From Pseudodesulfovibrio piezophilus C1TLV30 (GTDB taxonomy: Bacteria; Desulfobacterota; Desulfovibrionia; Desulfovibrionales; Desulfovibrionaceae), in contig NC_020409.1 in NCBI RefSeq assembly GCF_000341895.1, positions 3,452,411 to 3,484,410 of the forward strand: a stretch of 32,000 nt of DNA, read 5' to 3'. Each line of letters opens with the position of its first letter. Position 1 is the first letter of the stretch. A program made the position numbers and the translations under genes. Of the stretch, positions 15,666-30,651 are shown in pieces. The notes beneath the pieces are model-generated. The model ran no database searches and had not been told where the DNA came from. It saw only the letters and a program-made list of their open reading frames with translations.

Positions 15666-16717
15666 TTGCGGACTCCCTGAAAGGAGTCCCGAAGGGATTC
15701 TGCGATTATTTTCAAGCCATATTCATTCATATGTCCTGTCCCAGGGGGGCTGTTGAAGAAGCCTCGTGGTAACGTCTTTTTTTGCAGGTACAGTTGAGTA
15801 AATCGTTTTGTCGTATCAATGAATCCCACGCCACTCTCTGTGCAGATGGTGTGAAATCGTTCAACAAGGTCTGCTTTGGTATCTTTGAGTTGAATTCTAC
15901 CATGCTTGAGGGAAGGGACACTTTTGGGGCAATAAATGAAAACAAGAAACCCACTGCTTTGTTGCTTCAGTCTCTGTAAGAGAAAACGCCATCCCTCTTC
16001 GAGGTTGTAGGATTTCGAGTCGGCAGGTGGTCTCTGAGTCGATTGTGGGGCTTGGGTTCTGGTGAGCCTGAGATCCGGCAGTCTCTGCGATGTCAGCAAA
16101 TAATAAAACGGACCGAGGCGAAGCGTTCTGGCAATAGATTTTAAAAACTGTTTCCTCTTTCCAGGGGCTATCTTTTTGTCAGTTAATGCCCATGGAGATG
16201 ATAAAAACTGTCCATGTCCGTTTATTGGGATATTGGGGAGCACGTCGTCCATACCGCTGAGCAGGATGACATGGCCGACTATGCCCTTCAGGGCTTTTTC
16301 ATATCGAGGTATTGCGTAGTAGTAGTCGGCTACCGTTGCACCGCTTCGTCCATATGTGATGCACGCGTATGGAGTTTCGGACGAGATGGCATTGAATTGA
16401 GCTGAGATTTTTTTGTTATCCGGAACTTGTAAGGATTCCGCATGGGAGTCTCCCCACAGGATGAATTTGGGTCTTGCTGACAAGACAAGGGCTTCTTCAT
16501 TCAAGGCAAAACCATGCTGACCATAGTGCGAGTCTGCCCAGCCTTCGCTTCTCCATGTCACAATTGATCCTGGAGTTGGGACATATTCTCCAATGGTTTG
16601 ATCAAACGTTTGGAGTTGAAGACTGTTTTTGAAGAAAAAGACCATGGCCCAGATGATCAGAGTTGACGAGAGTATCCCTATTCCCCAGTGGAAAATGGAA
16701 TTGCTGTTTTTTTTCAT
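15662..16717 (-). CDS. SGNH/GDSL-like periplasmic partner of the MBOAT (AlgJ/AlgX/PatB-like), single N-terminal TM
   Basis: TM anchor IFHWGIGILSSTLIIWAMVFFF. GDS(H) block ILWGDSHAESL. 4-nt overlap with the MBOAT gene. The start is uncertain: ATG 16717 or ATG 16855. Confidence 0.6.
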   Translation of the reverse strand: MKKNSNSIFHWGIGILSSTLIIWAMVFFFKNSLQLQTFDQTIGEYVPTPGSIVTWRSEGWADSHYGQHGFALNEEALVLSARPKFILWGDSHAESLQVPDNKKISAQFNAISSETPYACITYGRSGATVADYYYAIPRYEKALKGIVGHVILLSGMDDVLPNIPINGHGQFLSSPWALTDKKIAPGKRKQFLKSIARTLRLGPFYYLLTSQRLPDLRLTRTQAPQSTQRPPADSKSYNLEEGWRFLLQRLKQQSSGFLVFIYCPKSVPSLKHGRIQLKDTKADLVERFHTICTESGVGFIDTTKRFTQLYLQKKTLPRGFFNSPPGTGHMNEYGLKIIAESLRDSFQGVRK

Positions 16718-16888
16718 GGGTGGATCATCTGTTAATGGATTGAGAGACTCAGCATTTAGTTTGTATTTTCGTAACGTCCTAATAAACTTTTTGAAGTCAC
16801 TCAAGTCAATAAAAAAAGGCGGAATACAGGCTTGAGTGTGGGAGGGGATGTGCATGTTTTCTCACGATTGTCATGAAGGGTTTCTGGC

Positions 16889-17650
16889 ATGCATGTTGCT
16901 TTAACAAAAGAGACTTTTATGGAGCAGCAGTCAGGAACGATTGAGAAAATTGAGGGTGCGATGTTCGATCAAGAGGGTGTGTTGCTGGAGTTTTCACAAT
17001 GCGAGTATGCGGATATGGCTCGTTTGCAAGAAGTTCTTCGAAATAAAAGATATCAGGAAGATATTCCGGATGTCGTTATTTTTCTTGAACATACGGCATG
17101 TATCACAGTTGGCCGCAGCGGAGGATATGAGAATATACTCGCGGACAACGTTGCTTTGAAAAATAACGGGATAGCTGTTCATGAAACTCCCCGAGGGGGA
17201 AATATCACATATCATGGGCCGGGGCAGTTGGTTTGTTATCCGATTCTTTCATTGGAAGGAGAAAAACGGGATCTGCATCTCTATGCTCGCAATATGGAAG
17301 AGGTCATGATTCGCACAGTGGAGAGCTTTGGTATCCAAGCTGGGCGCAAACCCCAATACCCCGGAGTTTGGGTCGGGGAAAATAAGATCGGCGCAATGGG
17401 GATTGCTGTTCGAAAATGGACCACTATGCACGGTATCGCATTGAATGTATGTCCTGACCTGGACCATTTCTCCTTGATCGTGCCTTGTGGAATTGGTTCC
17501 CATGGTGTCACTTCCATGGCGGAAGTCCTGGGGTCTTCTATTGATATCAAGAGTGTTCGTAGTGAAATGCAAAGGCACTTTTCAGAAATTTTTGAAATCT
17601 CTCTCCATCCCGTTGAGTTGAAAGATCTTATTGAGGAGGAATCGTTGTGA
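16889..17650 (+). CDS. lipB: Lipoyl(octanoyl) transferase LipB
   Basis: VIFLEHTACITVGR.., RGGNITYHGPGQLVCYPIL, KIGAMGIAVRKWTTMHGIALNV. ATG 16919 is an alternative start. Confidence 0.9.
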   Translation: MHVALTKETFMEQQSGTIEKIEGAMFDQEGVLLEFSQCEYADMARLQEVLRNKRYQEDIPDVVIFLEHTACITVGRSGGYENILADNVALKNNGIAVHETPRGGNITYHGPGQLVCYPILSLEGEKRDLHLYARNMEEVMIRTVESFGIQAGRKPQYPGVWVGENKIGAMGIAVRKWTTMHGIALNVCPDLDHFSLIVPCGIGSHGVTSMAEVLGSSIDIKSVRSEMQRHFSEIFEISLHPVELKDLIEEESL

Positions 17651-18507
17651 TAAAACCGCGCTGGCTGGTGCTTCCAGCTCCCGATGCTCATGATATGAAT
17701 CGTATTCAGGATATTTTAGACAAGGGGCAGTTACACTCTGTGTGCGAAAGCGCCCAATGTCCGAATATTGGTGAGTGCTTTGCTCATAAGACCTGCACGT
17801 TCATGATTTTGGGAGATATCTGCACACGTAATTGTGCATTTTGTGCTGTCGCCCATGGTCATCCTCTCAGTCCTGATCCTCAGGAGCCGGGGATGGTAGG
17901 GGAGACAGCCAGGCAGTTGGGGTTGAAGCATGTGGTCGTCACTTCGGTAACTCGGGATGATCTTCCTGATGGTGGTGCGGAACATTTTGTGGCGACAATA
18001 CAAGCCATCAAGCATGAAAATCCGGATGCAACCGTGGAAGTCCTTATTCCTGATTTCGGAGGGCGGCGAGAGCCGCTTGAGAGTGTCCTTTCGGCGATGC
18101 CGGATGTCCTTAACCATAATATTGAAACAGTCCCCCGTCTCTATGATTCAGTTCGACCGGGAGCACGTTATGAGCGTTCCTTGCAGTTGATTAGGAATGT
18201 TTCCAACTCACGTTCCGATGAGCGGATTCTCACGAAATCAGGTCTGATGCTCGGACTCGGCGAAACACAAGAGGAAGTCGTTGCAACAATGGAGGATCTG
18301 CTTCAGGTCGGGTGTCGTATTGTGACTCTTGGACAATATCTTTGTCCCTCGTCTCGTCATCATCCTGTGGTCGAGTATGTTCATCCTGACACATTCAACC
18401 GATTGGCTGATATTGGCAAACAGCTTGGGTTCAAACAAGTGGTGGCAGGGCCGCTGGTGCGGAGTTCCTATCATGCTGCCGAAAGTTTCAAAGAGTTGCG
18501 GATGTGA
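17647..18507 (+). CDS. lipA: Lipoyl synthase LipA (radical SAM)
   Basis: KPRWL N-terminus. CESAQCPNIGEC (Cx4Cx5C) and CTRNCAFC (Cx3Cx2C) motifs. C-terminal RSSYHA. GTG start overlaps the lipB stop. Confidence 0.95.
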   Translation: MIKPRWLVLPAPDAHDMNRIQDILDKGQLHSVCESAQCPNIGECFAHKTCTFMILGDICTRNCAFCAVAHGHPLSPDPQEPGMVGETARQLGLKHVVVTSVTRDDLPDGGAEHFVATIQAIKHENPDATVEVLIPDFGGRREPLESVLSAMPDVLNHNIETVPRLYDSVRPGARYERSLQLIRNVSNSRSDERILTKSGLMLGLGETQEEVVATMEDLLQVGCRIVTLGQYLCPSSRHHPVVEYVHPDTFNRLADIGKQLGFKQVVAGPLVRSSYHAAESFKELRM

Positions 18508-18570: not shown

Positions 18571-19353
18571 ATGCGTGATTTTATCAAGATAACGCTTGTT
18601 GCCAATGCGGGTGTTTTTGTTGAATACGCAGGTCTTGGATTTCTTGTGGACGGTATTCACTCTGAAGGCGGTTCTCCCTTCAGTCCGGTTTCTTCGGTGG
18701 AGCTGGGACATATGCGGGAAGGCTCAGGTTTTTTCAAGAATTTGGATTACCTGCTTTTTACCCATGACCATCCTGACCATTTTTCTCCTCGGCTTGTTGC
18801 GGACCATATAGGGGAACGGCCTGCCAAGGGACTTTTCCTACCGGGTGAAACACGAAGTTCCGCTGACCATGGACGACTCTTTGACCGACTTCAGGAACGT
18901 GGTATCCCTTACTGGGCTGTGGGGCTTGAGCCTGGGAAGACACAGTGTTTTATCCTTGCCGATGATGTTACCCTCACTCTTCTCGGTGCATCACACATGG
19001 GGCCACAGTATGCACGCATTAGGAATACTTGTTTCCTGCTGACAGTGGGTGGGAAAAACCTGTTGTTTACGGGTGATGCTGATCCCGTTGAGCAAGACTT
19101 TGGTTTTGCATTGAAAGAAGAGGTGGTGGATGTGGCATTCGTGAATCCTCTTTTTTATCACCACCCCAAAGGGCAACACGTCATCAATGAGGTCTTTCGG
19201 CCCAGCACCCTTGTTATTTATCACATGCCTTTCATTCATACCGACACCACACCGCTTCTTTCCATGGTTAACCGGGACATTCAACGTCACGGACGGCCTG
19301 ATATGCCGGTCCATGTCTTTAATCAGGAGCAACAGTCTCTTCGGCTGTCGTGA
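18571..19353 (+). CDS. MBL-fold metallo-hydrolase
   Basis: HxHxDH motif (THDHPDH), a downstream GDAD and a His-containing C-terminal half. Substrate unknown. Confidence 0.7.
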   Translation: MRDFIKITLVANAGVFVEYAGLGFLVDGIHSEGGSPFSPVSSVELGHMREGSGFFKNLDYLLFTHDHPDHFSPRLVADHIGERPAKGLFLPGETRSSADHGRLFDRLQERGIPYWAVGLEPGKTQCFILADDVTLTLLGASHMGPQYARIRNTCFLLTVGGKNLLFTGDADPVEQDFGFALKEEVVDVAFVNPLFYHHPKGQHVINEVFRPSTLVIYHMPFIHTDTTPLLSMVNRDIQRHGRPDMPVHVFNQEQQSLRLS

Positions 19354-19388: not shown

Positions 19389-19434
19389 TGTTCAGAAATG
19401 GAACATTTTTGATGAGCAGTTCCAAAATAGAACA
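19389..19434. promoter_or_regulatory. Putative enhancer (UAS): two TGTTC-N7-GAACA-type palindromes upstream of bdh
   Basis: TGTTCagaaatgGAACA at 19389-19405 and aGTTCcaaaataGAACA at 19418-19434. The same motif occurs at 23090-23201 and 29488-29522. Confidence 0.55.
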
Positions 19435-19592
19435 GGTTTGTCGTGCCATGTGTGTGTCTTGGAACAAGAAACACATCACGAAAACATCATGTGCGTGACA
19501 TTTGTCTCCAAGACTGAATAAGCAGTGTTTTGAGGAAGGTACAGGCGCAAGAAGTCCTGAGCCTTGCTCTGATGTATTTCCTTTCTTTTTTT

Positions 19593-19608
19593 TGGCACAC
19601 CGGGTGCA
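19593..19608 (+). promoter_or_regulatory. Sigma-54 (-24/-12) promoter of the butanediol dehydrogenase gene
   Basis: TGGCACaccggGTGCA has correct GG-N10-GC spacing and lies 77 nt upstream of the ATG at 19685. Confidence 0.7.
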
Positions 19609-19684
19609 CTGTATGTTTTATGCCTTTGCACCCTCAATAGTTGCGGTCAAAATGTTTTATAACAGAGAAAAAAGAGAGGATTCA

Positions 19685-20761
19685 ATGAGCGAAACAATGC
19701 GAGCTGCCGTGTGGCATGGAAAGCAGGATGTCCGTGTTGAGACCGTTCCGGTTCCCCCTTCTCCATCAGCCGGTTGGGTCAAGATCAAAGTTGATTGGTG
19801 TGGTATCTGCGGTTCGGATTTGCATGAGTTCGTCGCCGGTCCGGTTTTCATTCCGACTGATGCTCCGCATCCCCTGACAGGAAAGCAGGGCAGTGTCATC
19901 CTCGGTCATGAGTTTACGGGAACAGTCGTGGAAGTTGGCGAGGGCGTCACCAATGTGAGTGTCGGTGATTTTGTGGCACCTGATGCCTGTCAGCATTGTG
20001 GCGAATGTATCACATGTCGTGCCGGGCGGTACAACGTCTGCGAGAAGCTGGCCTTCACAGGGCTGCATAATGATGGTGCTTTTGCAAAATATGTGAATAT
20101 ACCCAGCGAACTCTGCTATATATTACCAAATGGTATTTCCTCTGAGGCGGGGGCGTTGATCGAACCGCTGGCAACAGGGTACAAAGCCGTGCGTGAAGCT
20201 GGCTCCATTCTTGGAGAGACGGTTGTCATAATCGGGGCAGGGACCATTGGTTTAGGGACTCTGATGGCAGCCAGAGCGGCAGGCGCGGGTATGATAATCG
20301 TGCTGGAAATGTCAACCGTCCGGGCTGCAAAGGCCAAGGAATGTGGGGCTGATGTTGTTCTTAATCCGAATGAATGCGACCCTGTTGCTGAAATAAAAGC
20401 TTTGACCCAAGGGTCAGGTGCGGATGTTTCTTTCGAATGTGTCGGCAACAAATTCACCGGACCACTTGCCGTGGATGTGCTTCGTAATGCAGGGCGGGCG
20501 ATCATTGTCGGTATTTTTGAAGAATCCAGTTCATTCAATTTTTTCAGTTTAAGTGGGACAGACAAACGCGTTATAGGCACCTTGGCTTATACTTTGAGCG
20601 ATTTTCAGGGTGTTTCGACCCTGCTGGCGAACGGGCAGCTCAAGGCTGAACCCATGATTACCGGTCGGATACATCTTGAAGACATTGTGGAAAAAGGCTT
20701 TTGGGAATTGATCAATAACAAGGATGAGAACATCAAGATTATCGTCAGTCCAGGAGACTAG
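19685..20761 (+). CDS. Zn-dependent MDR alcohol dehydrogenase, 2,3-butanediol dehydrogenase / acetoin reductase type
   Basis: MRAAVWHGKQDVRVETVP..CGICGSDLHE..GHEFTG..CQHCGECITCRAG and Rossmann motif GAGTIGLG. SD AGAGAGGA before ATG 19685. The ORF-track extension to 19502 covers the promoter and was rejected. Confidence 0.8.
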   Translation: MSETMRAAVWHGKQDVRVETVPVPPSPSAGWVKIKVDWCGICGSDLHEFVAGPVFIPTDAPHPLTGKQGSVILGHEFTGTVVEVGEGVTNVSVGDFVAPDACQHCGECITCRAGRYNVCEKLAFTGLHNDGAFAKYVNIPSELCYILPNGISSEAGALIEPLATGYKAVREAGSILGETVVIIGAGTIGLGTLMAARAAGAGMIIVLEMSTVRAAKAKECGADVVLNPNECDPVAEIKALTQGSGADVSFECVGNKFTGPLAVDVLRNAGRAIIVGIFEESSSFNFFSLSGTDKRVIGTLAYTLSDFQGVSTLLANGQLKAEPMITGRIHLEDIVEKGFWELINNKDENIKIIVSPGD

Positions 20762-20940: not shown

Positions 20941-23013
20941 CTAGATTTGGATACGGTGTCGTTCCATTTTTGCATACAGGGTATTGCGCCCGATTCCCAG
21001 AGCTTTAGCCGTTTTACTAATGTTGCACGCATGAAAATTCAATGCCTCACGGATTGCGTCTTCCTCTCTCTTTTTGAGTTGGAATTCTTTGCTTGAGTTC
21101 GTATGCTTTGTGTTGATTCGGTGTCGGGCTTTGTCCAGAATGTGATGCGGGAGATTCTCCTCCCGGAGCCATGCATCGGAGAGGTTATTGATTGCATATT
21201 CTATGCAATTGACGAGTTCTCGAACATTTCCTGGCCATGAGTACGCCATGAAGGTCTTCGCCACTTCAGGGAGCATTCCTTCACAATGAATGCCAAATTC
21301 CGTGCAAAGACGGTTCAGATGATATTCGGCCAGGAGGACAATGTCATTTCCTCGTTCATGAAGGGAAGGGAGGGTGATTCCAACCACATTCAGGCGATAA
21401 AACAGGTCCTCTCGAAATTGGTTTTGTCTCACAAGTTCACGCAGATTCTTGTTGGTTGCCGCAATGATTTTCACATCCACGGACTGTGGAGTTGTGCCGC
21501 CCACAGGGACAACGGTCCTTTCTTCCAGCGCCCTCAGGAGACTGACTTGTTGCGAAAGTGGCATTTCAGAAATCTCATCCAGAAACAGGACTCCTTTGTC
21601 TGCCTGTTGGAATTTCCCTATACGGCCTTTTCTGGATGCTCCTGTAAACGATCCCCCGCAATACCCGAAGAGTTCACTTTGCACCAACTCTTCAGGGAAC
21701 GCGCCGCAATTAATTGCAATGAAGGGGTGCTGGGATCGTGGTCCGGCTTGGTGTATGCCACGGGCGAAGAGCTCCTTTCCGGTCCCTGATTCTCCATACA
21801 GGAGAACGGTTGATGGCGTCTTTGCCGCTTTGGCAGCCTGAAGAATTGATTGAGACATGGATCGGCTTGAATACAATATATGCTCAAATCCTTCCGGGGT
21901 GGTTTCAGAGGGGGGGATTGTTTCGAAGCATTCCTTTTTGGCAGGGACTGCGAATTGATGCGTGGTTTGTTTTTCGCAAATACTGACGATGGTATCCAGA
22001 TGGGTGCCGGTGAGACTGAAAACATTCAAGGCTCGCACGAATAAATCCGGGTTTATCCGACAGGGGATGACCGTCGGTTCATGTACTGAGGCATTTTTCG
22101 TCTGAGCTATGAAATCATCGTAATGAAAAAATTCCTCGGCCTGGCGACCACGGAGTGTCCCCCATGGAGTTCCGATCAATGCCTCGGCTGCACTGTTGGC
22201 ACTGAGGATTTTGCCTGATTTATCCAAGGAAAGAATGCCCGTCATTACGGAGTTGAACATTGAAGAAAAGAGCGTTCCCAGCTGACCTTCCAGTTCCGAG
22301 CAATAGAGGCGGCAGAGATGCTGCTCCAAGGCCCGTGCCGCTTGAAGAACAAGGTTCAGATTCTTAGAGTGATCCATGTTTGAAGGACCGGAAATATCAA
22401 AACATCCCCATATGCTGCCGTGTGGGTCCAGAATTGGGGCTGCTGTACAGCTCCAACTGTGATGGCTACGGCAGAAATGTTCTTCACCGAAAACCTGCAT
22501 GGGACGTCCTGTTGCCAAGGCCGTCCCTATGGCATTGGTTCCCACGCTTTCTTCTGCCCAATTGGCTCCTGGGCCAAAGTTCAACTTGTCAGCCTGCCGC
22601 AGGGTCTTCAGATCACCGCATGTCCGGGCCACACGGCCTTTGGCATTCGTGAATGTCATGAGCATTCCTTTGCCGCGGATCGCTTCATATGCCGTATTTT
22701 CGACATCGCCACAGATCTTTCCCAGTGTTGAGGTAAACGGCTCCAACTCTGTCATAGGTTTGAAATCCCAGCAATTTCTCGGGCCAGGATCAATGCCCAT
22801 TTTTTTACACCTGCCCCAGGAATCGATGATGTTCTCGTTCAGGCAACTGAGGTTGACCTGTCTCCCTTCCACAAAACGTTTCCACTGAGAATAGTTGACC
22901 TGCGAACCTCGCTGGCCGCGCAGGGGAGACCATGGTGAATGGGATGAAGGGGTTGCCTCAATATGGGACGCGCTGATTTCGAAGCCGTCATCGTTTCTAA
23001 GGAGTAAATGCAT
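20941..23013 (-). CDS. acoR: AcoR-like sigma-54-dependent transcriptional activator (N-terminal GAF-like sensor, PAS, AAA+, Fis HTH)
   Basis: GESGTGKELFARGIH, GSFTGA (intact F-T), LFLDEISEM, FREDLFYRLNV, WPGNVRELVN, HTH NISKTAKALGIGRNTLYAKM. ATG 23013 has SD GGAG 8 nt upstream. It is divergent from the aco operon. Confidence 0.85.
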   Translation of the reverse strand: MHLLLRNDDGFEISASHIEATPSSHSPWSPLRGQRGSQVNYSQWKRFVEGRQVNLSCLNENIIDSWGRCKKMGIDPGPRNCWDFKPMTELEPFTSTLGKICGDVENTAYEAIRGKGMLMTFTNAKGRVARTCGDLKTLRQADKLNFGPGANWAEESVGTNAIGTALATGRPMQVFGEEHFCRSHHSWSCTAAPILDPHGSIWGCFDISGPSNMDHSKNLNLVLQAARALEQHLCRLYCSELEGQLGTLFSSMFNSVMTGILSLDKSGKILSANSAAEALIGTPWGTLRGRQAEEFFHYDDFIAQTKNASVHEPTVIPCRINPDLFVRALNVFSLTGTHLDTIVSICEKQTTHQFAVPAKKECFETIPPSETTPEGFEHILYSSRSMSQSILQAAKAAKTPSTVLLYGESGTGKELFARGIHQAGPRSQHPFIAINCGAFPEELVQSELFGYCGGSFTGASRKGRIGKFQQADKGVLFLDEISEMPLSQQVSLLRALEERTVVPVGGTTPQSVDVKIIAATNKNLRELVRQNQFREDLFYRLNVVGITLPSLHERGNDIVLLAEYHLNRLCTEFGIHCEGMLPEVAKTFMAYSWPGNVRELVNCIEYAINNLSDAWLREENLPHHILDKARHRINTKHTNSSKEFQLKKREEDAIREALNFHACNISKTAKALGIGRNTLYAKMERHRIQI

Positions 23014-23089
23014 TCTCGATCTCCAGTACAAAACGAAAAAGGTTATAGACAATATTAAGTCTCTGACTCATCACCGGAATCTCTGTCAA

Positions 23090-23108
23090 GTGTTCACATT
23101 TCGAACAC
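23090..23108. promoter_or_regulatory. Putative AcoR enhancer site 1 (GTGTTC-N7-GAACAC)
   Basis: Perfect 6-bp arms GTGTTCacatttcGAACAC in the acoR/acoC divergent intergenic region. Confidence 0.6.
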
Positions 23109-23182
23109 AGTCCTACTCTTTTGCATCTTTTTTACTTTTAATATCAGCTAAATAAGTCCTTCTTGGTGCACCTTTGTCCTGA

Positions 23183-23201
23183 GTGTTCTACTCCAGAACA
23201 C
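23183..23201. promoter_or_regulatory. Putative AcoR enhancer site 2 (GTGTTC-N7-GAACAC)
   Basis: Perfect 6-bp arms GTGTTCtactccaGAACAC, 93 bp centre-to-centre from site 1 and about 70 bp upstream of the -24 element. Confidence 0.6.
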
Positions 23202-23263
23202 ACTTGCGGTTTTTTAGGGAGAGTTGTTTCTATAACTTACCGTAATTCAACATATAATCTTAC

Positions 23264-23279
23264 TGGCATAGCCATTGCT
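23264..23279 (+). promoter_or_regulatory. Sigma-54 (-24/-12) promoter of the aco operon
   Basis: TGGCATagccaTTGCT is a near-perfect match to TGGCAC-N5-TTGCW, 42 nt upstream of the ATG at 23321. Confidence 0.8.
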
Positions 23280-23320
23280 ATATTCTCAGCCAACTTCGTA
23301 AAAAAATAGGAGGATTGGCC

Positions 23321-24673
23321 ATGGCTCAACAAGTGATCATGCCCAAATGGGGCTTGACCATGAAAGAAGGAAAAGTTGTTCGCTGGCTTAAAGGTGAGGG
23401 TGAATCGGTTGATGCCGGTGAGCCTTTATTTGAAGTGGAAACGGACAAAATCACGAACTCGGTGGAAGCCCCTGCCAGTGGTGTCTTATCCCAAATCATA
23501 GTCCCTGAAGGTGAAACTGCCGAGGTCCAGGCTGTTTTGGCAGTTATTGCCGCGCCAGGAGAAAACCCTGACATAATACCAAGTGGATCGACGGCAACCG
23601 ACAACGTTGAATCTTCCGGCGATGCAGTGGCTGGCGAACCTGCCGTTGCTTCATCTCAGGCATCGGTTGAAGGCGGTGATTTTGTTCCGGCCATGCCTGC
23701 TGCTCGCAAATTGGCGAAGGAATTGAACGTTGCCCTGTCCACGGTTGTCGGAACCGGACCTCATGGAACAATTGTGATGAAAGATGTTCAGGCATCGGCT
23801 GACAGTGCTTTTGCCGGGATTAACGCCAGTGCCAAGGCAATTGAATTCGCCCGTAAAAATGGCATTGATCTCGGTCAGGTCTCGGGGACCGGTGATGACG
23901 GTCGAATTACCAAAGCCGACATCCTGCGTGCAATGAATCCGGTTTCCGATCAACAGGTATCATCCAATCAGCCTGTCATTGCTCAGGATACCATCGTGCC
24001 TATGGACGGTGTCCGCAAGCTTATTGGTGACAATATGCAGGCCAGCTTGACCAATGCGGCGCAGCTTTCCGTGTTCGTCGAAATTGACGCCACCGAAATG
24101 GTTTCCTTGCGCGCGGCGATTCTTGAACGGAACAAGCGCAACGCAGAATACAAGCTCTCATACAATGACATCGTTTCGTATGCTGTGTGTCGAGCTCTCA
24201 AGCGACATCCGATTATGAATTCGACCTTGCAGGACGATGGCATTCATCTGCACCAAAGTGTCAATCTTGGTATTGCTGTGGCCCTGCCAAACGGGCTTAT
24301 TGTGCCGAATATCAAGAATGCCGGAAGCTTGACGTTGGAGGAACTCAAGACAGAGATCCGGGATGTCGCAGGTCGGTCTCGGACCGGCGGTCTGAATATG
24401 GATGAAATATCCGGCGGCACCTTTACCATCAGTAATGTCAGCATGCTTGGTGTGGATGGTTTTACCCCCATTCTCAATCCTCCAGAGACAGGCATACTCG
24501 GTGTCGGGCGTATTGTTGAGAAACCGGCAGTCAAGGATGGCGAAATTCAGATTCGGCAAATGATGACCCTTTCTCTGACATTCAATCACATGACTACGGA
24601 TGGTGCGCCTGCCATGTCTTTCCTGCGCGAGTTGGGGGACATGCTGGAAACTCCGGGTCTGATGACATTGTAG
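23321..24673 (+). CDS. acoC: Dihydrolipoamide acetyltransferase (E2) of an acetoin-dehydrogenase-type complex; one lipoyl domain, two PSBD domains, catalytic domain
   Basis: Lipoyl-lysine motif VETDKIT (K codon 23447-23449). Two E3-binding-like segments. Catalytic ..LSLTFNHMTTDGAPAMSFL (H..DG). SD AGGAGG 7 nt before ATG 23321. Confidence 0.85.
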   Translation: MAQQVIMPKWGLTMKEGKVVRWLKGEGESVDAGEPLFEVETDKITNSVEAPASGVLSQIIVPEGETAEVQAVLAVIAAPGENPDIIPSGSTATDNVESSGDAVAGEPAVASSQASVEGGDFVPAMPAARKLAKELNVALSTVVGTGPHGTIVMKDVQASADSAFAGINASAKAIEFARKNGIDLGQVSGTGDDGRITKADILRAMNPVSDQQVSSNQPVIAQDTIVPMDGVRKLIGDNMQASLTNAAQLSVFVEIDATEMVSLRAAILERNKRNAEYKLSYNDIVSYAVCRALKRHPIMNSTLQDDGIHLHQSVNLGIAVALPNGLIVPNIKNAGSLTLEELKTEIRDVAGRSRTGGLNMDEISGGTFTISNVSMLGVDGFTPILNPPETGILGVGRIVEKPAVKDGEIQIRQMMTLSLTFNHMTTDGAPAMSFLRELGDMLETPGLMTL

Positions 24674-24680
24674 GTTCGTT

Positions 24681-25121
24681 ATGGCGCGGAAAAGATTTGC
24701 TGTTGAACTCGGTTATGCAGCCGATTTGCATGGTGAAGACATGACCAAGGCCGTGGTGCGAGCTGTTCGTGATGCTGTGTCCCGGATTTGTCTCTGTGGT
24801 CTTGTGGAAATATGTGGTCGTGATCGGTTTCAAGGCGTCTTTGTCCATGCTGATATCGCTGTTCCCCAGCCGGAACAGGTTGACCATTCGGCCGTGCTTG
24901 CCGCCATCCCCATTGGTGAAACTTCATTGAACGTGACTGTCGGCGGCATGAGTGTCCCCGGGATGGAAGTTCCCTGCTTTGCCCCTGGTGTCAGCAACAT
25001 AGTTGTTGCGTGCGCCGCGCTGACTGTTTCCATTGAGACGGACATGGCAAGTGAGGCTGATGAGGACTCGGAAAACAGGTGGATCGGATGTGCCGTGAAG
25101 CCGAATAACCCAGAGGAGTAA
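24681..25121 (+). CDS. Small conserved hypothetical protein (possibly Lin0512-family-like), embedded between E2 and E1-alpha
   Basis: 146 aa. N-terminus FAVELGYAADLHGEDMTKAVVRAVRDAV resembles my memory of the Lin0512_fam N-terminus (uncertain). Tightly packed: 7 nt after the acoC stop and 5 nt before the acoA ATG. Acidic tail. Confidence 0.55.
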   Translation: MARKRFAVELGYAADLHGEDMTKAVVRAVRDAVSRICLCGLVEICGRDRFQGVFVHADIAVPQPEQVDHSAVLAAIPIGETSLNVTVGGMSVPGMEVPCFAPGVSNIVVACAALTVSIETDMASEADEDSENRWIGCAVKPNNPEE

Positions 25122-25126
25122 ACACA

Positions 25127-26086
25127 ATGGCTCTGAGCAAGAAGACATTGATCAATATGTATGAAACCATGAACAGGATTCGTCTGTTCGAACTGAGACT
25201 GCAGGAACTTTTCGCAGCAAGCGAAATTCCCGGTTTCGTCCATCTTTATCTCGGCGAGGAAGCGGTTGCCACAGGAGCCTGTGCCGCGCTTACCGATGCC
25301 GACATGATTACCAGTACACATCGCGGGCATGGGCATCTTTTGGCAAAAGGTGGAGATTTGAAGCTCATGATGGCTGAAATATTCGGGCGGAAAACCGGCT
25401 ACTGCAAAGGCAAAGGCGGTTCCATGCACATTGCCGATTTGGATCTCGGTATTCTCGGGGCCAACGGTATTGTGGGAGGTGGTGGCCCTCTTGCCGCAGG
25501 AGCGGCTCTGGCAGCCAAATACAGAAAAAGCAAAGATGTCGCCATGTGCTTTTTCGGTGATGGTGCCTCCAATCAGGGAACAACCCAGGAGTCCCTGAAC
25601 ATGGCGAGCGCCTGGAAGCTGCCTCTGGTCTTCATCAATGAAAATAATGGGTACGGTATTTCCTGCCCCCAATGCAAATCCATGGCTGTCGTGGATATTG
25701 CGGATCGCGCAGCTGCATATGATATGCCCGGCGTAGTGGTTGACGGAAACGACGTGCTCGCTGTGCATGAAGCCGTTTCCGAGGCCGTCAAACGTGCGCG
25801 TCGCGGAGAAGGCCCGTCATTGGTTGAGTGCAAAACATATCGCTGGCGTGGTCACTTTGAAGGGGATGCCTGCACATACCGTTGCGATGAAGAGCTGAAA
25901 GAGTGGAAAGCCAAAGACCCCATTCCTCGTTTCGAGGCCAAATTGATAGAAAAGAAGACACTGACTCAGAGTGAAGCGGATACAATAAAAGAACGCATTG
26001 CTCAGGATGTTGATGAAGCTGTGACGTACGCCAAGGAAAGTCCGATGCCGCCTGTCAGTGCATTGATGGATGACGTGTACGCCTAA
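25127..26086 (+). CDS. acoA: Acetoin:acceptor oxidoreductase / 2-oxoacid dehydrogenase E1 alpha subunit (TPP-binding)
   Basis: LYLGEEAVATG, TSTHRGHGH, TPP motif GDGASNQG..(27 aa)..NENNGYG, YRWRGHFEGD. SD GAGGAG. Confidence 0.9.
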   Translation: MALSKKTLINMYETMNRIRLFELRLQELFAASEIPGFVHLYLGEEAVATGACAALTDADMITSTHRGHGHLLAKGGDLKLMMAEIFGRKTGYCKGKGGSMHIADLDLGILGANGIVGGGGPLAAGAALAAKYRKSKDVAMCFFGDGASNQGTTQESLNMASAWKLPLVFINENNGYGISCPQCKSMAVVDIADRAAAYDMPGVVVDGNDVLAVHEAVSEAVKRARRGEGPSLVECKTYRWRGHFEGDACTYRCDEELKEWKAKDPIPRFEAKLIEKKTLTQSEADTIKERIAQDVDEAVTYAKESPMPPVSALMDDVYA

Positions 26087-26130
26087 GTCGGCTGCGGTTT
26101 TTACGAATCATAAATCCAACGGAGTGAATA

Positions 26131-27102
26131 ATGTCCGAAAAAACATATCTTCAGGCTCTCAACGAAGCATTGAGCCAGGAAATGGAGCGCGATGAGAATG
26201 TCTTCATCATAGGTGAAGACGTGGGGCAATTTGGTGGTTGTTTTGGGGTCACCCAGGGGCTTTTTGACACGTTCGGGAGTGACCGTGTCATGGATACGCC
26301 AATTACAGAAAGCGCAATTGTCGGCGCAGCCACAGGTGCGGCCGCATGCGGTCTTCGCCCTGTAGCGGAGTTGATGTTTGTGGATTTCATCGGTGTTTCT
26401 ATGGATCAGCTCTTTAATCAGGCTGCGAAAATGCGTTACATGTTCGGTGGTAAAACCACGGTTCCCATGACGTTGCGTGCACCTCAAGGCGCAGGTATCG
26501 GTGCTGCTGCCCAGCATTCTCAGTGCCTGGAATCCTGGTTCATGAATATTCCGGGACTCAAAGTCGTTATCCCATCGACCCCTTACGATGCCAAGGGGCT
26601 GTTGATAAGTGCAATTCGCGATGACAACCCGGTTGTCTTTCTTGAGCACAAGATGTTGTATGGTGTCAGTGGAGAAGTGCCGGACGAGAGTTATACCATC
26701 GAGATAGGCAAGGCTGACATCAAGCGTGAGGGCAGTGATGTGACTATCGTTGCGACGTCGCAGATGGTCTATGCGGCGCTTGAGGCAGCTGAAAAACTCA
26801 AAGCCGACGGTATTGATGCCGAAGTCGTCGACCCACGGAGCTTGTTACCACTGGACAAGGAGACGATTTTTGACTCAGTCAGAAAGACGCATGCCTTGGT
26901 TGTTGTCCATGAGGCGGTCCAGTTCGCTGGTCCGGGAGCAGAAATAGCTGCCATGGCGGCAGAAGAAATTCTTGAGTATCTGGATGCTCCCATCAAGCGT
27001 GTTGGTGCTCCATTCTGCCCGGTTCCCTTCTCGCCTCCTCTTGAGCAGCATTATATCCCCGGTGCAGAGAATATCATCGAGGCCGTCAAGAGTATTCGTT
27101 AA
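26131..27102 (+). CDS. acoB: Acetoin dehydrogenase E1 beta subunit
   Basis: YLQALNEALSQEMERDENVFIIGEDVG.., DTPITESAIVGAATGAA, transketolase-C-like C-terminal half. SD GGAG. Confidence 0.9.
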   Translation: MSEKTYLQALNEALSQEMERDENVFIIGEDVGQFGGCFGVTQGLFDTFGSDRVMDTPITESAIVGAATGAAACGLRPVAELMFVDFIGVSMDQLFNQAAKMRYMFGGKTTVPMTLRAPQGAGIGAAAQHSQCLESWFMNIPGLKVVIPSTPYDAKGLLISAIRDDNPVVFLEHKMLYGVSGEVPDESYTIEIGKADIKREGSDVTIVATSQMVYAALEAAEKLKADGIDAEVVDPRSLLPLDKETIFDSVRKTHALVVVHEAVQFAGPGAEIAAMAAEEILEYLDAPIKRVGAPFCPVPFSPPLEQHYIPGAENIIEAVKSIR

Positions 27103-27117
27103 ACAAACTTTGGTTGA

Positions 27118-27145
27118 GAGGGGAACGGCTTTTGCCGTTCCCCTC
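27118..27145 (+). other. Intra-operon 12-bp perfect stem-loop between acoB and the acoX-like gene
   Basis: GAGGGGAACGGC-tttt-GCCGTTCCCCTC. No downstream U-tract. Immediately followed by SD GAGGAG (27148-27153). Confidence 0.8.
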
Positions 27146-27169
27146 GTGAGGAGAGATGAGGGCGTATCA

Positions 27170-28165
27170 TTGAGTATTGCAGCAATCTTGGCTAATCCAG
27201 CTTCCGGTAAAGATATTCGTCGGTTAGTGGCTCATGGGAGTGTCTTCGACAATCAGGAGAAAGTTCGTATGGTGCGAAGGCTTATTCTGGGCCTTGAACG
27301 TGCCGGAGTCACAAAAATTTTATATATGCCTGATGCCTATGCGATCATCCCTCGTGCCTTGAATTCTATTTCGCCGTCCATTCCTGTCGAAGCAGTAGAA
27401 ATGCCCATACGGAACACTGATGCCGACACCTCCCTCGCAGCAGAGCTTATGGAAACGCTCGGTGCACAGAGCCTTGTTGTTCTCGGGGGTGACGGGACCA
27501 GCAGAGTGGCCTGCAAAGGGACGCTGAACGTCCCCATCCTGCCACTTTCCACTGGGACAAATAATGTTTTTCCTGTCATGTCTGAGGCTACGGTGGCGGG
27601 GTTGGCCGCAGGACTGGTTGCCTGCGGCCGCCTCCCCCGGCAGGAATGTTGTTATCAGTCTTGTATGCTTGATATTGTTTTTGGTGAGACGGTCATTGAT
27701 ATGGCTTTGGTTGATGCCGCAGTCTATGATGACGTTTTTTTCGCATCAAGAGCGGTTTGGGACATGCACAAGGTTCCGCAACTTTTTCTGACACGATGTA
27801 ATCCTACCTCCATTGGGTTGTCTGCCATAGGCGGGCAGCTGCGTGACATCCGTCCTCAAGAGCCGAGGGGATTGGCATTAAAGCTGGGAAAACCGGCTTC
27901 GCTCACTGTTACCGCGTCCATTGCGCCAGGGATGTTCTCCGATATTCCCATCCGTGAAATCGAAGACATGCCCCCCGGAGTTGTTTTCCCTATCGCATCC
28001 AGCACAGGTTTGATAGCGGTGGATGGAGAACGAGAGATTGAAATTTCTCAAGATTCCAATGCCGGTATTCGATTGAATACCGGCGGCCCTCTGGTTATCG
28101 ATGTGGAAAAAACCATGGCCTTGGCCAGAGAACAGGCCTGCTTCGTGACAAACACATATTCATAG
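27170..28165 (+). CDS. acoX: AcoX-like ATP-NAD kinase / diacylglycerol-kinase-fold protein
   Basis: N-terminus (TTG) SIAAILANPASGKDIRRLV and the GGDGT signature (VVLGGDGTSRV). TTG 27170 chosen; GTG 27146 is possible. The ORF-track start 26972 overlaps acoB and the hairpin and was rejected. Confidence 0.7.
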   Translation: MSIAAILANPASGKDIRRLVAHGSVFDNQEKVRMVRRLILGLERAGVTKILYMPDAYAIIPRALNSISPSIPVEAVEMPIRNTDADTSLAAELMETLGAQSLVVLGGDGTSRVACKGTLNVPILPLSTGTNNVFPVMSEATVAGLAAGLVACGRLPRQECCYQSCMLDIVFGETVIDMALVDAAVYDDVFFASRAVWDMHKVPQLFLTRCNPTSIGLSAIGGQLRDIRPQEPRGLALKLGKPASLTVTASIAPGMFSDIPIREIEDMPPGVVFPIASSTGLIAVDGEREIEISQDSNAGIRLNTGGPLVIDVEKTMALAREQACFVTNTYS

Positions 28166-28174
28166 GGAGAAAAC

Positions 28175-28483
28175 ATGAGTCATCCATTGAAAGCTGCTTT
28201 TATTTTTCTTGCTCCAGGAGGAGATCCGAAAGTTCATAGAAATTGGGTTATTACAGAAGGAGTTGAATTACTCTCCATTGCCGTGAGTGATTATGGACAG
28301 GCTGAGACTCTGGCTCGTGAGTTGGTTGAGCAAGAAGAAATAGCAGCCATAGAACTCTGTGGAGGATTTGGAGCCGCAGGAACGGCGCGGGTTGCGGCGG
28401 CAGTGAATGTTCCTGTCGGAGCTGTCCGTTTCGATATTCATCCCGGTCTGAATAATCTCAGTGGGGATACGCTCTTTGGTTAA
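28175..28483 (+). CDS. Conserved hypothetical 102-aa protein, last gene of the aco operon
   Basis: ATG lies 9 nt after the acoX-like stop, with SD GGGAGA. It contains IELCGGFGAAG. No family assigned with confidence. Confidence 0.55.
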   Translation: MSHPLKAAFIFLAPGGDPKVHRNWVITEGVELLSIAVSDYGQAETLARELVEQEEIAAIELCGGFGAAGTARVAAAVNVPVGAVRFDIHPGLNNLSGDTLFG

Positions 28484-28542
28484 TCCGACCTCGTGAGCGG
28501 AATCAGATAGTAAGCGAAAAGAATTTCTTTCGGCGCTTCTTG

Positions 28543-28932
28543 TCAGCCGTCAGCTAGAATGTGATTCGGAGTGACAAAGCAGGTGAATGTACCGGTGAAG
28601 ACCTGTTCGTCTTCACAGAAAACATCGACGTGTACGGTGTGTTTTCGCTCGTGTGGAGTCGTGTCGTGCGCTTTTGCGACCAAGGTATTTCCAATGCGGG
28701 AAGGCTTCAGAAATCGTGTTTCAGCAGCACCCAGTACAACATTGGGATGGTTGACTGCGAGCATGGCCGCATAGTCGGCCAGGCCGAATATGAAGCCACC
28801 ATGGATCAGCCCGCTTGAGTCTGCACCCATTTCTTCAGTGCATTCCATGCGCACATGACTTGTCCCGTTCTCCACCATGATCGGTTCGCCGCATAAAGTT
28901 CGATCGATTGTATGATGGGTTTGAATATTCAT
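28543..28932 (-). CDS. PaaI/YbgC-type hotdog-fold thioesterase
   Basis: ..GLIHGGFIFGLADYAAMLAV.. is typical of PaaI-family thioesterases. 129 aa from ATG 28932; the longer ORF-track start 29019 was rejected. Confidence 0.75.
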   Translation of the reverse strand: MNIQTHHTIDRTLCGEPIMVENGTSHVRMECTEEMGADSSGLIHGGFIFGLADYAAMLAVNHPNVVLGAAETRFLKPSRIGNTLVAKAHDTTPHERKHTVHVDVFCEDEQVFTGTFTCFVTPNHILADG

Positions 28933-29030
28933 CTTTTCCCTTTTGCTTGAGTGCCAGAAATCCTTGTTTTGAAAAAGCTTCCAAGGGCAGGAAGATGATA
29001 GTCTCCTGCCCTTGGACAAATATTTACCGA

Positions 29031-29357
29031 CTAATCAAACAGGTCTTCCAACTCGTCAAAAACATAATGCATGTACATGACCTTCGGTGAGCCTCCCATG
29101 GATATGGCTAACATTGCGGCCTGCATTATTTCTTCCTTGCTCGCGCCATGACTGGCCGCCCCTTGGATGTGGAGCGAGATGCACATCTCGCACTGGGACA
29201 TCATGGAACAGGCAACGTGAATCAGTTCCTGCGTTTTATGATCAATGGGTCCAAATTCGCTGATTTCTTTGGTGAAGGCAAGGTAATTGGGGAACACGTT
29301 GCCAGCACGCTGTGTCATCTTGGCCAAAGTCCCCGCTGCTTTTTCTGCTGCATCCAT
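29031..29357 (-). CDS. Carboxymuconolactone decarboxylase (AhpD-like) family protein
   Basis: 108 aa with the CMD core motif CxxCxxxH (QCEMCISLH). SD AAAGGAG before the ATG. Confidence 0.8.
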   Translation of the reverse strand: MDAAEKAAGTLAKMTQRAGNVFPNYLAFTKEISEFGPIDHKTQELIHVACSMMSQCEMCISLHIQGAASHGASKEEIMQAAMLAISMGGSPKVMYMHYVFDELEDLFD

Positions 29358-29396
29358 GAACCGACTCCTTTGTTAAATGTTAAGATGTAACAAGTA

Positions 29397-29412
29397 AGCA
29401 AAGAGCATGCCT
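29397..29412 (-). promoter_or_regulatory. Sigma-54 (-24/-12) promoter of the CMD-thioesterase operon
   Basis: The minus strand reads AGGCATgctctTTGCT with correct GG-N10-GC spacing, about 40 nt upstream of the ATG at 29357. Confidence 0.7.
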
Positions 29413-29487
29413 CAACATCCTTTGGCATGGACGGGCTCTTTTTCATGTAAATATGGGCTTATGGCAATACTCGGAGTGTCTATCTTC

Positions 29488-29522
29488 TGTTCCAGATGTG
29501 AACATTGATCGAGAATTGAACA
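29488..29522. promoter_or_regulatory. Putative enhancer: two adjacent TGTTC-N7-GAACA-type palindromes upstream of the CMD operon
   Basis: TGTTCcagatgtGAACA at 29488-29504 and TGaTCgagaattGAACA at 29506-29522, about 85-100 bp upstream of the -24 element. Confidence 0.55.
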
Positions 29523-29572
29523 CTCTTTCGTGTGCTTTTCCGCCAAGAAGGGAAGGGCACGCAAAAGAAAAA

Positions 29573-29595
29573 GGGCTGTGATTGAATCACAGCCC
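29573..29595 (-). terminator. Rho-independent terminator of tRNA-Leu
   Basis: GGGCTGTGATT / AATCACAGCCC hairpin. On the minus strand it is followed by TTTTTCTTTT. Confidence 0.75.
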
Positions 29596-29608
29596 TTATT
29601 TCATTCTA

Positions 29609-29695
29609 TGGTGCCGAAGAGAAGACTCGAACTTCCACGGGATTGCTCCCACTAGACCCTGAACCTAGCGTGTCTACCAATTCCACCACTTCGGC
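29609..29695 (-). tRNA. tRNA-Leu (anticodon CAG), class II with a long variable arm and encoded CCA
   Basis: The minus strand reads GCCGAAG-TG-GTGGAATTGGTAGACAC-G-CTAGG-TTCAGGG-TCTAG-TGGGAGCAATCCCGT-GGAAG-TTCGAGT-CTTCT-CTTCGGC-A-CCA. Acceptor, anticodon and T arms all pair. Confidence 0.9.
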
Positions 29696-30003
29696 ACGTT
29701 TCAGGGAAGGAAGAGATACCTTTAGGACTGATCCGTGTCAACAAAATGTTGTATTTTCAAATAAAGAATCTGGCTGCCGATACAATTGGCTTTCTTGCTG
29801 TATCAGGGAGACTCTTTTTGGAACGAGAAGATACTATTGAGTTTTTTTTATGTTGAAATTTCAGATGTCTTGATAAGATTCTTCGTTCATGGACTTGAGT
29901 GTTCTCCTGCGGTATGTTGTTTCCTTGGATTCCATTGTTTTTATATATAAGAGTCGGTCTCTGCTCTCTTTGTAAAAAGCTCTGGGCTGAATGAGGAGTT
30001 TGT

Positions 30004-30651
30004 ATGAAAACCATAACCTTGCTCGCACAAAAGGGTGGAACCGGGGAAACGATCCTTTCAATCCATTTGGCAACGGCAGCCGCCAATCGTCGGTACTCTG
30101 TTCTGACAGTCGATATTGATCCCCAGGGCAGTTCTTTTTTTTGGAGTCAACGGCGGCAAAGAGGGTTTCCAGGAGTTGTCAAATACTCGATCCGTGAATT
30201 GAGAAAAAACATGGCAACAATCGCACGTGAGGTCGACTTGATGATTCTCGATACACCTTCGCACTCAAGCAGGGGCGCAGGGGATGTCGTGTCTCTTTTG
30301 GATTTTGTGCTTATTCCGAGTAGGCTCACCATCCATGACTCCGTGAAGCTTGTGTGTGAAAAGGGAAAATCCGGTGCTATTGTCTTGAATTGTTGTCCGC
30401 CGCCAGGTCTATTTGACGAAACCGCTTTGGTGCGCGAGGCTTGCTTGGCTTTGGAAGTCTATAAAATGCCTGTTTCTCCGGTCGCCATTTCACAACGTGC
30501 CGCCTTCAGTCTTGCGCTTATCGACGGTAGGGCCGTAACTGAGTTTGAAAAGAAAGGTAAGGCCGCAGGGGAAATCAAGACATTATGGGGTTGGATAAAA
30601 AAGGAGTTGGCCAATGGTGAGCAGAGCTCAATTAACGTTGTTGCCTGTTGA
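30004..30651 (+). CDS. ParA/MinD-family (small type-Ib-like) ATPase homologue with a mutated P-loop lysine
   Basis: MKTITLLAQKGGTGETIL..VLTVDIDPQGS..MILDTPS. The deviant Walker A reads KGGTGET instead of KGGxGKT (GAA codon at 30046-30048). Confidence 0.75.
   Translation: MKTITLLAQKGGTGETILSIHLATAAANRRYSVLTVDIDPQGSSFFWSQRRQRGFPGVVKYSIRELRKNMATIAREVDLMILDTPSHSSRGAGDVVSLLDFVLIPSRLTIHDSVKLVCEKGKSGAIVLNCCPPPGLFDETALVREACLALEVYKMPVSPVAISQRAAFSLALIDGRAVTEFEKKGKAAGEIKTLWGWIKKELANGEQSSINVVAC

Follow-up and report, generated by a model that had tools for sequence, protein, structure and literature searches.

The window analysed here, a stretch of 32,000 nucleotides (nt) from Pseudodesulfovibrio piezophilus C1TLV30 (contig NC_020409.1, positions 3,452,411 to 3,484,410), carries two minus-strand genes that are convergent to the acetoin dehydrogenase (aco) operon of the plus strand, at its 3' end. 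One encodes a protein of the carboxymuconolactone decarboxylase (CMD) family and the other a hotdog-fold protein. The CMD gene is very probably a conserved member of the acetoin regulon of the Desulfobacterota that is controlled by the activator AcoR and sigma-54, because the AcoR-type motif and the -24/-12 promoter are conserved across the aco-linked loci and absent at the CMD paralogues. A preliminary description had viewed the gene pair as recruited into the acetoin regulon. Regulon membership is upheld by the sequence comparisons, but the implied local oddity is not; the gene is instead a standard and ancient component of this Desulfobacterota cluster type and is not peculiar to this genome. 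Scans of the open reading frames and of protein profiles found every element, including the CMD and hotdog genes, at the coordinates originally given. Neither the regulon nor the protein family is new, but their combination is, and it is conserved and suggestive of function.

The CMD gene has its own -24/-12 promoter, AGGCATGCTCTTTGCT, as had been proposed. The element shows the correct GG-N10-GC spacing and begins 55 nt ahead of the ATG; a ribosome-binding site, AAAGGAG, lies before this start codon. No sigma-70 promoter was found between positions 28400 and 29750. Two AcoR-type enhancer sites lie approximately 110-130 nt ahead of the transcription start, which is expected near 29385; this predicted arrangement is the normal geometry for an enhancer-binding protein. 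The consensus TGTTC-N7-GAACA, with at most one mismatch, was matched 8 times in the window compared with 1.29 +/- 1.04 times in shuffled sequences, and a count of 8 was not attained in any of 100 shuffles. The four exact copies, together with two of the four that have one mismatch, fall in the promoter regions of bdh, acoC and CMD, and -24/-12 elements with GG-N10-GC spacing are present at all three places. The earlier claim that CMD shares its motif pair with bdh and acoC is thus confirmed.

A CMD profile scan covering one genome per species returned 58 loci, in which the window proteins were located by tblastn; 50 of these had enough flanking DNA to be assessed. In 39 of the 50, the CMD gene is convergent to the gene series DUF6506<-acoX<-acoB<-acoA<-lin0512<-acoC, with acoR divergent. 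The preliminary description had named a lack of linkage to aco genes in other genomes as evidence against its proposal, and the survey decisively returned the opposite. The aco-linked CMD proteins are 50-97% identical to that of the window, the closest being from 'Desulfovibrio caledoniensis' (97%) and a Maridesulfovibrio sp. (96%). The 39 loci come from Desulfovibrionaceae, Desulfomicrobiaceae, Desulfobacterales, Desulfobulbales and Desulfacinum/Desulfosoma, and the aco-linked CMD loci span four orders of Desulfobacterota (Desulfovibrionales, Desulfobacterales, Desulfobulbales and Syntrophobacterales).

The control signals are conserved together with the gene order. Within 450 bp upstream of CMD, the motif was found in 34 and the -24/-12 promoter in 35 of the 39 aco-linked loci; both signals were present in 31 and at least one in 38. 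In 35 loci the form GGCAyG-N5-TTGCT is kept at 55-60 nt before the CMD start, and the relatives retain the tandem enhancer pair at the same 18-bp offset. Upstream of acoC, motif and promoter occur in 33 of 36 loci. The background frequency of the motif in the related loci is 0.15 per kb.

The remaining 11 of the 50 loci are not linked to aco genes and form a separate paralogue clade, with 47-55% identity to the CMD protein of the window. Neither the AcoR motif nor a sigma-54 promoter was found within 450 bp upstream of any of these 11 genes. Paralogues occur in the same genomes as an aco-linked copy (locus pairs L003/L054, L008/L052, L007/L047 and L011/L041). A second comparison is provided by a lipoate-protein ligase gene (lplA, 325 residues), which immediately precedes CMD, in the same orientation, in 29 of the 39 aco-linked loci; in 4 further loci this place is taken by lplB, lipA and a gene of the metallo-beta-lactamase fold. 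The AcoR motif is specific to CMD, since none of 30 lplA upstream regions carries it, and control of lplA by AcoR was ruled out for the same reason. In several Desulfovibrionaceae among L003-L013, a conserved element aGGcCCg-N5-TTTTGCA with GG-N10-GC spacing lies about 38-41 nt upstream of lplA with no AcoR motif near; it may represent a sigma-54 promoter that responds to a different activator. The paralogue loci of Desulfovibrionaceae (L039-L055, for example L054 9995-10324) have no aco genes nearby. The high-GC neighbourhood of L054 contains long open reading frames without Pfam matches, and a MerR-methyltransferase and a SpoIIE-type phosphatase alone were identified there.

The CMD protein scored 57.2 bits against Pfam PF02627 (cut-off 23) and 47.4 against TIGR00778 ahpD_dom (cut-off 27.8). 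It contains C56-E-M-C59, and the AhpD motif E-x11-CxxC-x3-H is complete, with E44, C56, C59 and H63. This redox motif is defined by Glu118, Cys130, Cys133 and His137 of Mycobacterium tuberculosis AhpD. The four residues were invariant in all 30 sequences of the first alignment and, together with a third cysteine, C50, in all 67 aco-linked CMD sequences. In the paralogue clade Ser replaces Glu44, and C50, C56xxC59 and H63 are kept. The AlphaFold2 model is all-alpha with seven helices (predicted local distance difference test score 80, predicted template-modelling (TM) score 0.70), and the top Foldseek matches are all members of the CMD family. The nearest solved structures are 5DIK (lpg0406), 1VKE/1P8C (TM1620) and 7Y4R ('RclX'), small hexameric CMD/AhpD-like proteins that resemble CMD in size, in the all-alpha fold and in the position of CxxC-x3-H. 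Their sequence E values range from 1e-11 to 3e-8 and their Foldseek TM scores from about 0.51 to 0.65 (approximately 0.64 for 5DIK, 1VKE and 1P8C). The identity is however 26-33% only, C50 and the segment MGGSPK are specific to the CMD clade, and the genomic context is different. The low confidence of the model in its N-terminal part accounts for the high global root-mean-square deviation of the Foldseek matches.

The match of CMD to 1GU9/1KNC was weak (E about 0.6-1). Membership in the gamma-carboxymuconolactone decarboxylases (PcaC) was considered and rejected, given that no pca genes were found among the window reading frames scanned and that the decarboxylase structures 2AF7 and 4G9Q matched only weakly in sequence and in fold. 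Membership in the mycobacterial type of AhpD, the reductase of AhpC, was rejected as well, since CMD has a single domain of 108 residues and neither a peroxiredoxin nor dihydrolipoamide dehydrogenase (Lpd) was found in the window or the related loci scanned. From the motif, the nearest small hexameric structures and the distant match to M. tuberculosis AhpD, CMD is predicted to be a single-domain dithiol/disulfide oxidoreductase of the AhpD type that belongs to neither of these two groups. Among the weak matches of CMD in NCBIfam were AhpD-domain proteins tied to arsenic metabolism.

The genomic context, which the functional idea of the preliminary description had left out of account, appears to be most telling with regard to function, since the cluster has no gene for the E3 component Lpd, CMD and Lpd are mutually exclusive, and lplA usually precedes CMD. 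No Lpd was found in the window or in 60 CMD-anchored loci (L001-L060), either with the PROSITE motif of class-I disulfide oxidoreductases or by tblastn with genuine Lpd. Independently, metagenome contigs were surveyed with DUF6506 as the anchor, which yielded 80 loci. CMD was present in 25 of them and Lpd in 17 aco loci, and no locus combined the two. In a separate search with DUF6506, the best 120 matches listed were all Desulfovibrionales-like. Where Lpd is present, DUF6506 is followed downstream by genes for a short-chain dehydrogenase/reductase (SDR), another E2 and Lpd, and by a lipoyl ligase/transferase-like gene plus a radical-SAM lipA-like gene, the last two read as one fused frame. 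Pfam confirmed this layout in L123 (10349-15781). The first E2 of the Lpd-type clusters has one peripheral-subunit domain and the second has two, and these sister clusters apparently also belong to Desulfobacterota, as a multihaem cytochrome c gene adjoins them. In a neighbour-joining tree of AcoB, which was not bootstrapped and in which several contigs are near-duplicates, three Lpd-type lineages are interleaved with the CMD type, one of the three falling within the Desulfovibrionales-like group. Because the lineages interleave, the exclusivity does not reflect one ancient split. In the window, a tRNA-Leu gene occupies the usual position of lplA, and the lipoylation genes are found upstream of bdh instead.

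The second gene of the pair calls for separate treatment. Its open reading frame begins at a TTG codon (28543-29019), but the ATG at 28932, which gives 129 residues, is the likelier true start and agrees with the gene calls in three metagenome copies (L147-L149). The protein scored 30.2 against Pfam 4HBT PF03061 (cut-off 20.6). It had been called a PaaI thioesterase. That name was not sustained, since the score against the PaaI equivalog TIGR02286 was 45.8, below the cut-off of 118.9, and no paa genes were found among the window reading frames scanned. The closest solved relative is PH1136 (1IXL), which aligns along the full length with E 2e-35 (residues 4-126); HP0420 and Cj0977 come next, and the matches to PaaI and FapR are much weaker. 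PH1136, Cj0977/HP0420 and PaaI share with the hotdog protein the fold and the HGG...AD active-site motif of the PaaI type. In 18 hotdog sequences, H44, G45, G46, F47, F49, G50, A52 and D53 of the segment HGGF-x-FG-x-AD are invariant, a pattern compatible with an active thioesterase. The protein is most likely, as a weak suggestion, an acyl-CoA thioesterase that would clear off-pathway thioesters or free CoA. A comparable idea has been put forward for acyl-CoA-active genes in the cluster of Pelobacter carbinolicus (PMC3543383).

Of the 39 aco-linked loci, 21 have a hotdog gene after CMD, and these are all from Desulfovibrionaceae or Desulfomicrobium. The family is very large (4098 matches), and relatives with approximately 60% identity sit in unrelated housekeeping neighbourhoods (argS and moaA; prfB and proB). 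Because the gene is limited to Desulfovibrionales here and its relatives have housekeeping contexts, it is the hotdog gene, and not CMD, that looks like a later recruit, added only in that order.

The convergence of the two genes on the aco operon is as originally described. The label of a two-gene operon needs a qualifier, however, because a strong hairpin followed by a run of U residues separates CMD from the hotdog gene. The hairpin is GC-rich, with a stem of approximately 14 bp before UUUUU, and has a folding energy of -33.3 kcal/mol (z -3.3) in the terminator scan and folding analysis. A hairpin of different sequence is found at the same place in nearly all Desulfovibrionales loci. The gaps between CMD and the hotdog gene are 47-140 nt in most loci, with no promoter evident. 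A separate sigma-54 promoter for the hotdog gene was considered at TGGCAC (about 28950) and rejected, as the -12 GC is mis-spaced (GG-N8-GC) and there is no enhancer site. Because the gaps are short and without promoter and the hairpin is conserved, the hotdog gene is probably expressed by partial read-through of the hairpin at a level below that of CMD. In the gap between the convergent operons (28484-28542) no significant structure was detected, and so no terminator was seen (folding z -0.12).

The mechanism that we favour begins with AcoR, which, bound to the tandem TGTTC-N7-GAACA sites, would activate sigma-54 RNA polymerase at the CMD -24/-12 promoter. CMD would be made together with bdh and with acoC-lin0512-acoAB-acoX-DUF6506. 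The CxxC of CMD would then undergo thiol-disulfide exchange with the dihydrolipoyl/lipoyl arm of AcoC, the E2 component, in the manner of mycobacterial AhpD and DlaT. The reduction of AhpD and its AhpD-like relatives via dihydrolipoamide acyltransferase and Lpd is known (Bryk et al. 2002, as cited in PMC10460364). In the proposed scheme oxidised CMD would take two electrons from dihydrolipoyl-AcoC, regenerating lipoyl-AcoC for the next turnover of E1, and reduced CMD would hand the electrons to some thiol/disulfide acceptor. This direction is preferred because CMD-type clusters encode no E3. The hotdog protein would join the regulon through hairpin read-through as an add-on specific to Desulfovibrionales.

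Taken as a whole, this explanation, in which CMD is a regulon member that exchanges with the lipoyl arm of AcoC in the oxidising direction and the hotdog gene is reached by read-through, is judged somewhat likely to be correct. Its parts differ in strength. By analogy with the mycobacterial proteins, CMD could well act on lipoyl groups, although the balance tips slightly toward doubt. That CMD is a true substitute for E3 is suggested by the gene content of the clusters and must be called doubtful. The most far-reaching version is an E3-independent acetoin dehydrogenase in which CMD replaces Lpd, the electrons pass to a thiol pool (thioredoxin-like, DsrC-like or heterodisulfide) and not to NAD+, and the hotdog protein is an editing thioesterase; this we consider unlikely.

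Several observations weigh against the favoured mechanism. Species of Desulfovibrio commonly have an Lpd with the glycine cleavage system, which could serve as E3. AcoC keeps two E3-binding (peripheral-subunit-binding) domains though no E3 is encoded nearby. The exclusivity of CMD and Lpd is correlative and exchanges whole modules, lplA-CMD with or without the thioesterase gene versus SDR-E2'-Lpd-LplB/LipA, and it was placed on a tree lacking bootstrap values. A catalytic bypass of E3 needs a high-flux acceptor for reduced CMD, yet none is evident in the cluster. In addition, most transcripts may end at the hairpin and so fail to reach the hotdog gene, and some of the metagenome loci are near-duplicates of one another. 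Finally, the transcriptomics in a preprint on P. mercurii ND132 mentions DND132_3102-3108 only, and the genes next to them are absent from the supplement (bioRxiv 10.1101/2022.10.17.512643).

The possibility was considered that CMD is a classical AhpD. According to this explanation, E3 would be supplied in trans from an Lpd encoded elsewhere, and CMD would tap dihydrolipoyl-AcoC as a reductant for a peroxiredoxin or another oxidised protein, making it an accessory of oxygen or peroxide defence outside the catalytic cycle, induced in a strict anaerobe along with a complex that depends on lipoyl groups and TPP. The full AhpD motif, the antioxidative annotation of the nearest structures and the retention of E3-binding domains in AcoC all agree with such a role, which is moreover the documented function of AhpD, in which AhpD, SucB (DlaT), Lpd and NADH feed peroxidases (PMC10460364). 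No peroxiredoxin, AhpC or Ohr was found, however, among the window reading frames scanned or the genes called in L001, L002 and L061. An antioxidant role also leaves unexplained why CMD is absent from the clusters that encode Lpd, when mycobacterial AhpD works with Lpd, and why the gene has a dedicated AcoR-dependent promoter in place of a stress promoter. We regard this role as unlikely, though it deserves serious mention.

A second alternative assigns CMD, with LplA, to lipoyl maintenance or salvage. CMD would maintain the proper redox or chemical state of lipoate, free or protein-bound, for instance through the resolution of persulfide or mixed-disulfide adducts in a sulfide-rich cytoplasm, without carrying catabolic flux. 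The position of lplA or of other lipoylation genes upstream of CMD would be well accounted for, as would the invariant C50 near the CxxC and the fact that the taxa are all sulfidogenic. Against it, the absence of the AcoR motif upstream of lplA means that lplA and CMD are not obviously co-regulated, the window itself has CMD without an adjoining lplA, and the Lpd-type sister clusters do without CMD. A maintenance role is accordingly rated improbable.

The suggestion that CMD is a true decarboxylase of the gamma-carboxymuconolactone type, acting on a carboxylated intermediate such as an acetolactate-like compound, draws on the Pfam family name and the weak matches to 2AF7 and 4G9Q, and is very unlikely indeed, since every orthologue keeps E-x11-CxxC-x3-H, the best matches are AhpD-like and not PcaC, and neither pca/beta-ketoadipate genes nor an acetolactate synthase was found among the window reading frames scanned. 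That CMD and the hotdog gene are unrelated neighbours with no role in acetoin catabolism, their promoter and motif being there by chance or for another target, is hardly credible and appears close to refuted: single -24/-12-like matches are indeed common (83 with up to 2 mismatches in the window versus 69 expected), but the motif is enriched (8 matches versus 1.29 expected), and synteny, promoter and motif persist across four orders at protein identities as low as 50% and are lacking at the paralogues.

Comparison with known systems helps to define what is unusual about the CMD-type clusters. The classical aco clusters of Cupriavidus necator (acoXABC), Bacillus subtilis (acoABCL-acoR) and P. 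carbinolicus (acoABCSL) share with them AcoAB, AcoC and AcoX, a sigma-54-dependent AcoR, a butanediol dehydrogenase nearby and lipoylation genes in the neighbourhood. The Desulfobacterota type differs in the order acoC-lin0512-acoA-acoB-acoX-DUF6506, in having no acoL, and in a CMD gene that is convergent, has its own promoter and may or may not be accompanied by the hotdog gene. In the acetoin cluster of P. carbinolicus, acoL is present and there is no CMD gene (PMC3543383, Table S2).

The AhpD/DlaT/Lpd/AhpC system of M. tuberculosis resembles the present one in its CMD-family protein with the E-x11-CxxC-x3-H active site, and the partnership of mycobacterial AhpD with the lipoyl group of E2 has a possible counterpart here, as suggested by the linkage of CMD to the AcoC and lipoate ligase genes. 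An AhpD-like protein, CgAhp, is likewise found with SucB and Lpd in Corynebacterium (PMC10460364). The differences are considerable. Mycobacterial AhpD has approximately 177 residues in two domains and forms a trimer, whereas CMD is a single domain like that of the hexameric TM1620 and lpg0406. The mycobacterial system requires Lpd, whereas the clusters described here have none, with CMD and Lpd exclusive and no AhpC or peroxiredoxin near. Unlike mycobacterial AhpD, CMD is encoded under a predicted catabolic AcoR/sigma-54 promoter in strict anaerobes.

In the literature searched, no CMD/AhpD-like gene in an acetoin regulon, no such operator in sulfate reducers and no alternation of CMD and Lpd was described. 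Acetoin and CMD both go unmentioned in a paper on the sigma-54 regulome of D. vulgaris and in a cross-phylum sigma-54 survey of 2025. The preprint on ND132 describes the same operon (DND132_3102-3108) and leaves the convergent genes unmentioned; it reports that the acetoin dehydrogenase operon was up-regulated in arsenate-treated washed cells and offers no explanation (bioRxiv 10.1101/2022.10.17.512643). A link between the arsenic response and the acetoin operon or CMD is possible; vicinal dithiols, dihydrolipoamide among them, are bound by arsenite.

Lipoyl-dependent dehydrogenase complexes are textbook E1-E2-E3 machines, and the CMD-type aco clusters, widespread in sulfate reducers, lack an E3 gene and have a CxxC protein instead. 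If CMD does service the lipoyl arm, the link between mycobacterial AhpD and lipoamide would extend from antioxidant defence to anaerobic catabolism, the recycling of dihydrolipoamide in strict anaerobes would be explained, and a function could be given to many proteins annotated just as 'carboxymuconolactone decarboxylase family protein'. If the E3-independent version were correct, it would represent a new closure of the catalytic cycle of the 2-oxoacid-dehydrogenase type. A conservative reading still provides a well-supported regulon member and a conserved AcoR operator, TGTTC-N7-GAACA, predicted from sequence for four orders of Desulfobacterota.

Table 1. Coordinates of the control sites, genes and structures of the acetoin region and its surroundings, numbered from the first letter of the window.
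Feature	Position	Strand	Remarks
Distal AcoR-type enhancer site of CMD, TGATCGAGAATTGAACA	29506-29522		1 mismatch to TGTTC-N7-GAACA
Proximal AcoR-type enhancer site of CMD, TGTTCCAGATGTGAACA	29488-29504		exact palindromic half-sites
CMD sigma-54 -24/-12 promoter, AGGCATGCTCTTTGCT	29412-29397	-	GG-N10-GC; 1 mismatch to TGGCA-N6-TTGCW
CMD gene	29031-29357	-	108-residue CMD/AhpD-core protein
Intercistronic hairpin, CMD/hotdog	28972-29016	-	terminator-like or attenuator-like
Hotdog gene	28543-28932	-	129 residues; 4HBT superfamily, PH1136/Cj0977 subgroup
Convergent aco operon	23315-28483	+	acoC-lin0512-acoA-acoB-acoX-DUF6506; no E3 gene
acoC control region	23091-23279	+	enhancer sites 23091-23107 and 23184-23200, both exact
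acoC sigma-54 promoter, TGGCATAGCCATTGCT	23264-23279	+	
acoC (E2)	23315-24673	+	
lin0512-family gene	24681-25121	+	
acoA	25127-26086	+	
acoB	26131-27102	+	
acoX	about 27110-28165	+	NAD-kinase-like
DUF6506 gene	28175-28483	+	
AcoR-like enhancer-binding protein gene	20941-23052	-	GAF, PAS, sigma-54 AAA+ and HTH_8; divergent from acoC
bdh enhancer sites	19389-19405, 19418-19434	+	exact; 1 mismatch
bdh sigma-54 promoter, TGGCACACCGGGTGCA	19593-19608	+	
bdh, Zn-dependent dehydrogenase gene	19685-20761	+	whole unit including control sites 19389-20761
Lipoyl ligase/transferase-like gene	16889-17650		probable start ATG 16919
Radical-SAM lipA-like gene	17647-18507		
Metallo-beta-lactamase-fold gene	18571-19353		
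Second activator gene	12580-13980	-	
tRNA-Leu(CAG) terminator hairpin	29571-29597		bidirectional
tRNA-Leu(CAG)	29609-29695		upstream of CMD
ParA-like ATPase gene	30004-30651		beyond tRNA-Leu

Some further features of the region were noted. The lin0512-family gene between acoC and acoA and the DUF6506 gene after acoX are fixed in every related locus, and in the alignment of DUF6506 40 positions are invariant, among them C62 and those of an RFD-x-HPGL motif. Beyond CMD, the ParA-like ATPase gene is followed by open reading frames without family matches, and in the related locus L001 a relaxase/primase mobile element lies beyond lplA. The edge of the cluster beyond CMD (29571-30651) appears to be prone to rearrangement or island insertion.

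Additionally, a perfect sigma-54 promoter, TGGCATGCATGTTGCT, is located at 16885-16900, directly before the lipoyl ligase/transferase-like, lipA-like and metallo-beta-lactamase-fold genes. Upstream of it there are degenerate AcoR-like sites only, at 16679 and 16711, with 2 mismatches each, and a site of the AcoR type with one mismatch lies at 17407, inside the lipoyl ligase/transferase-like gene. The candidate drivers of the promoter are AcoR and the second, minus-strand activator listed in Table 1.

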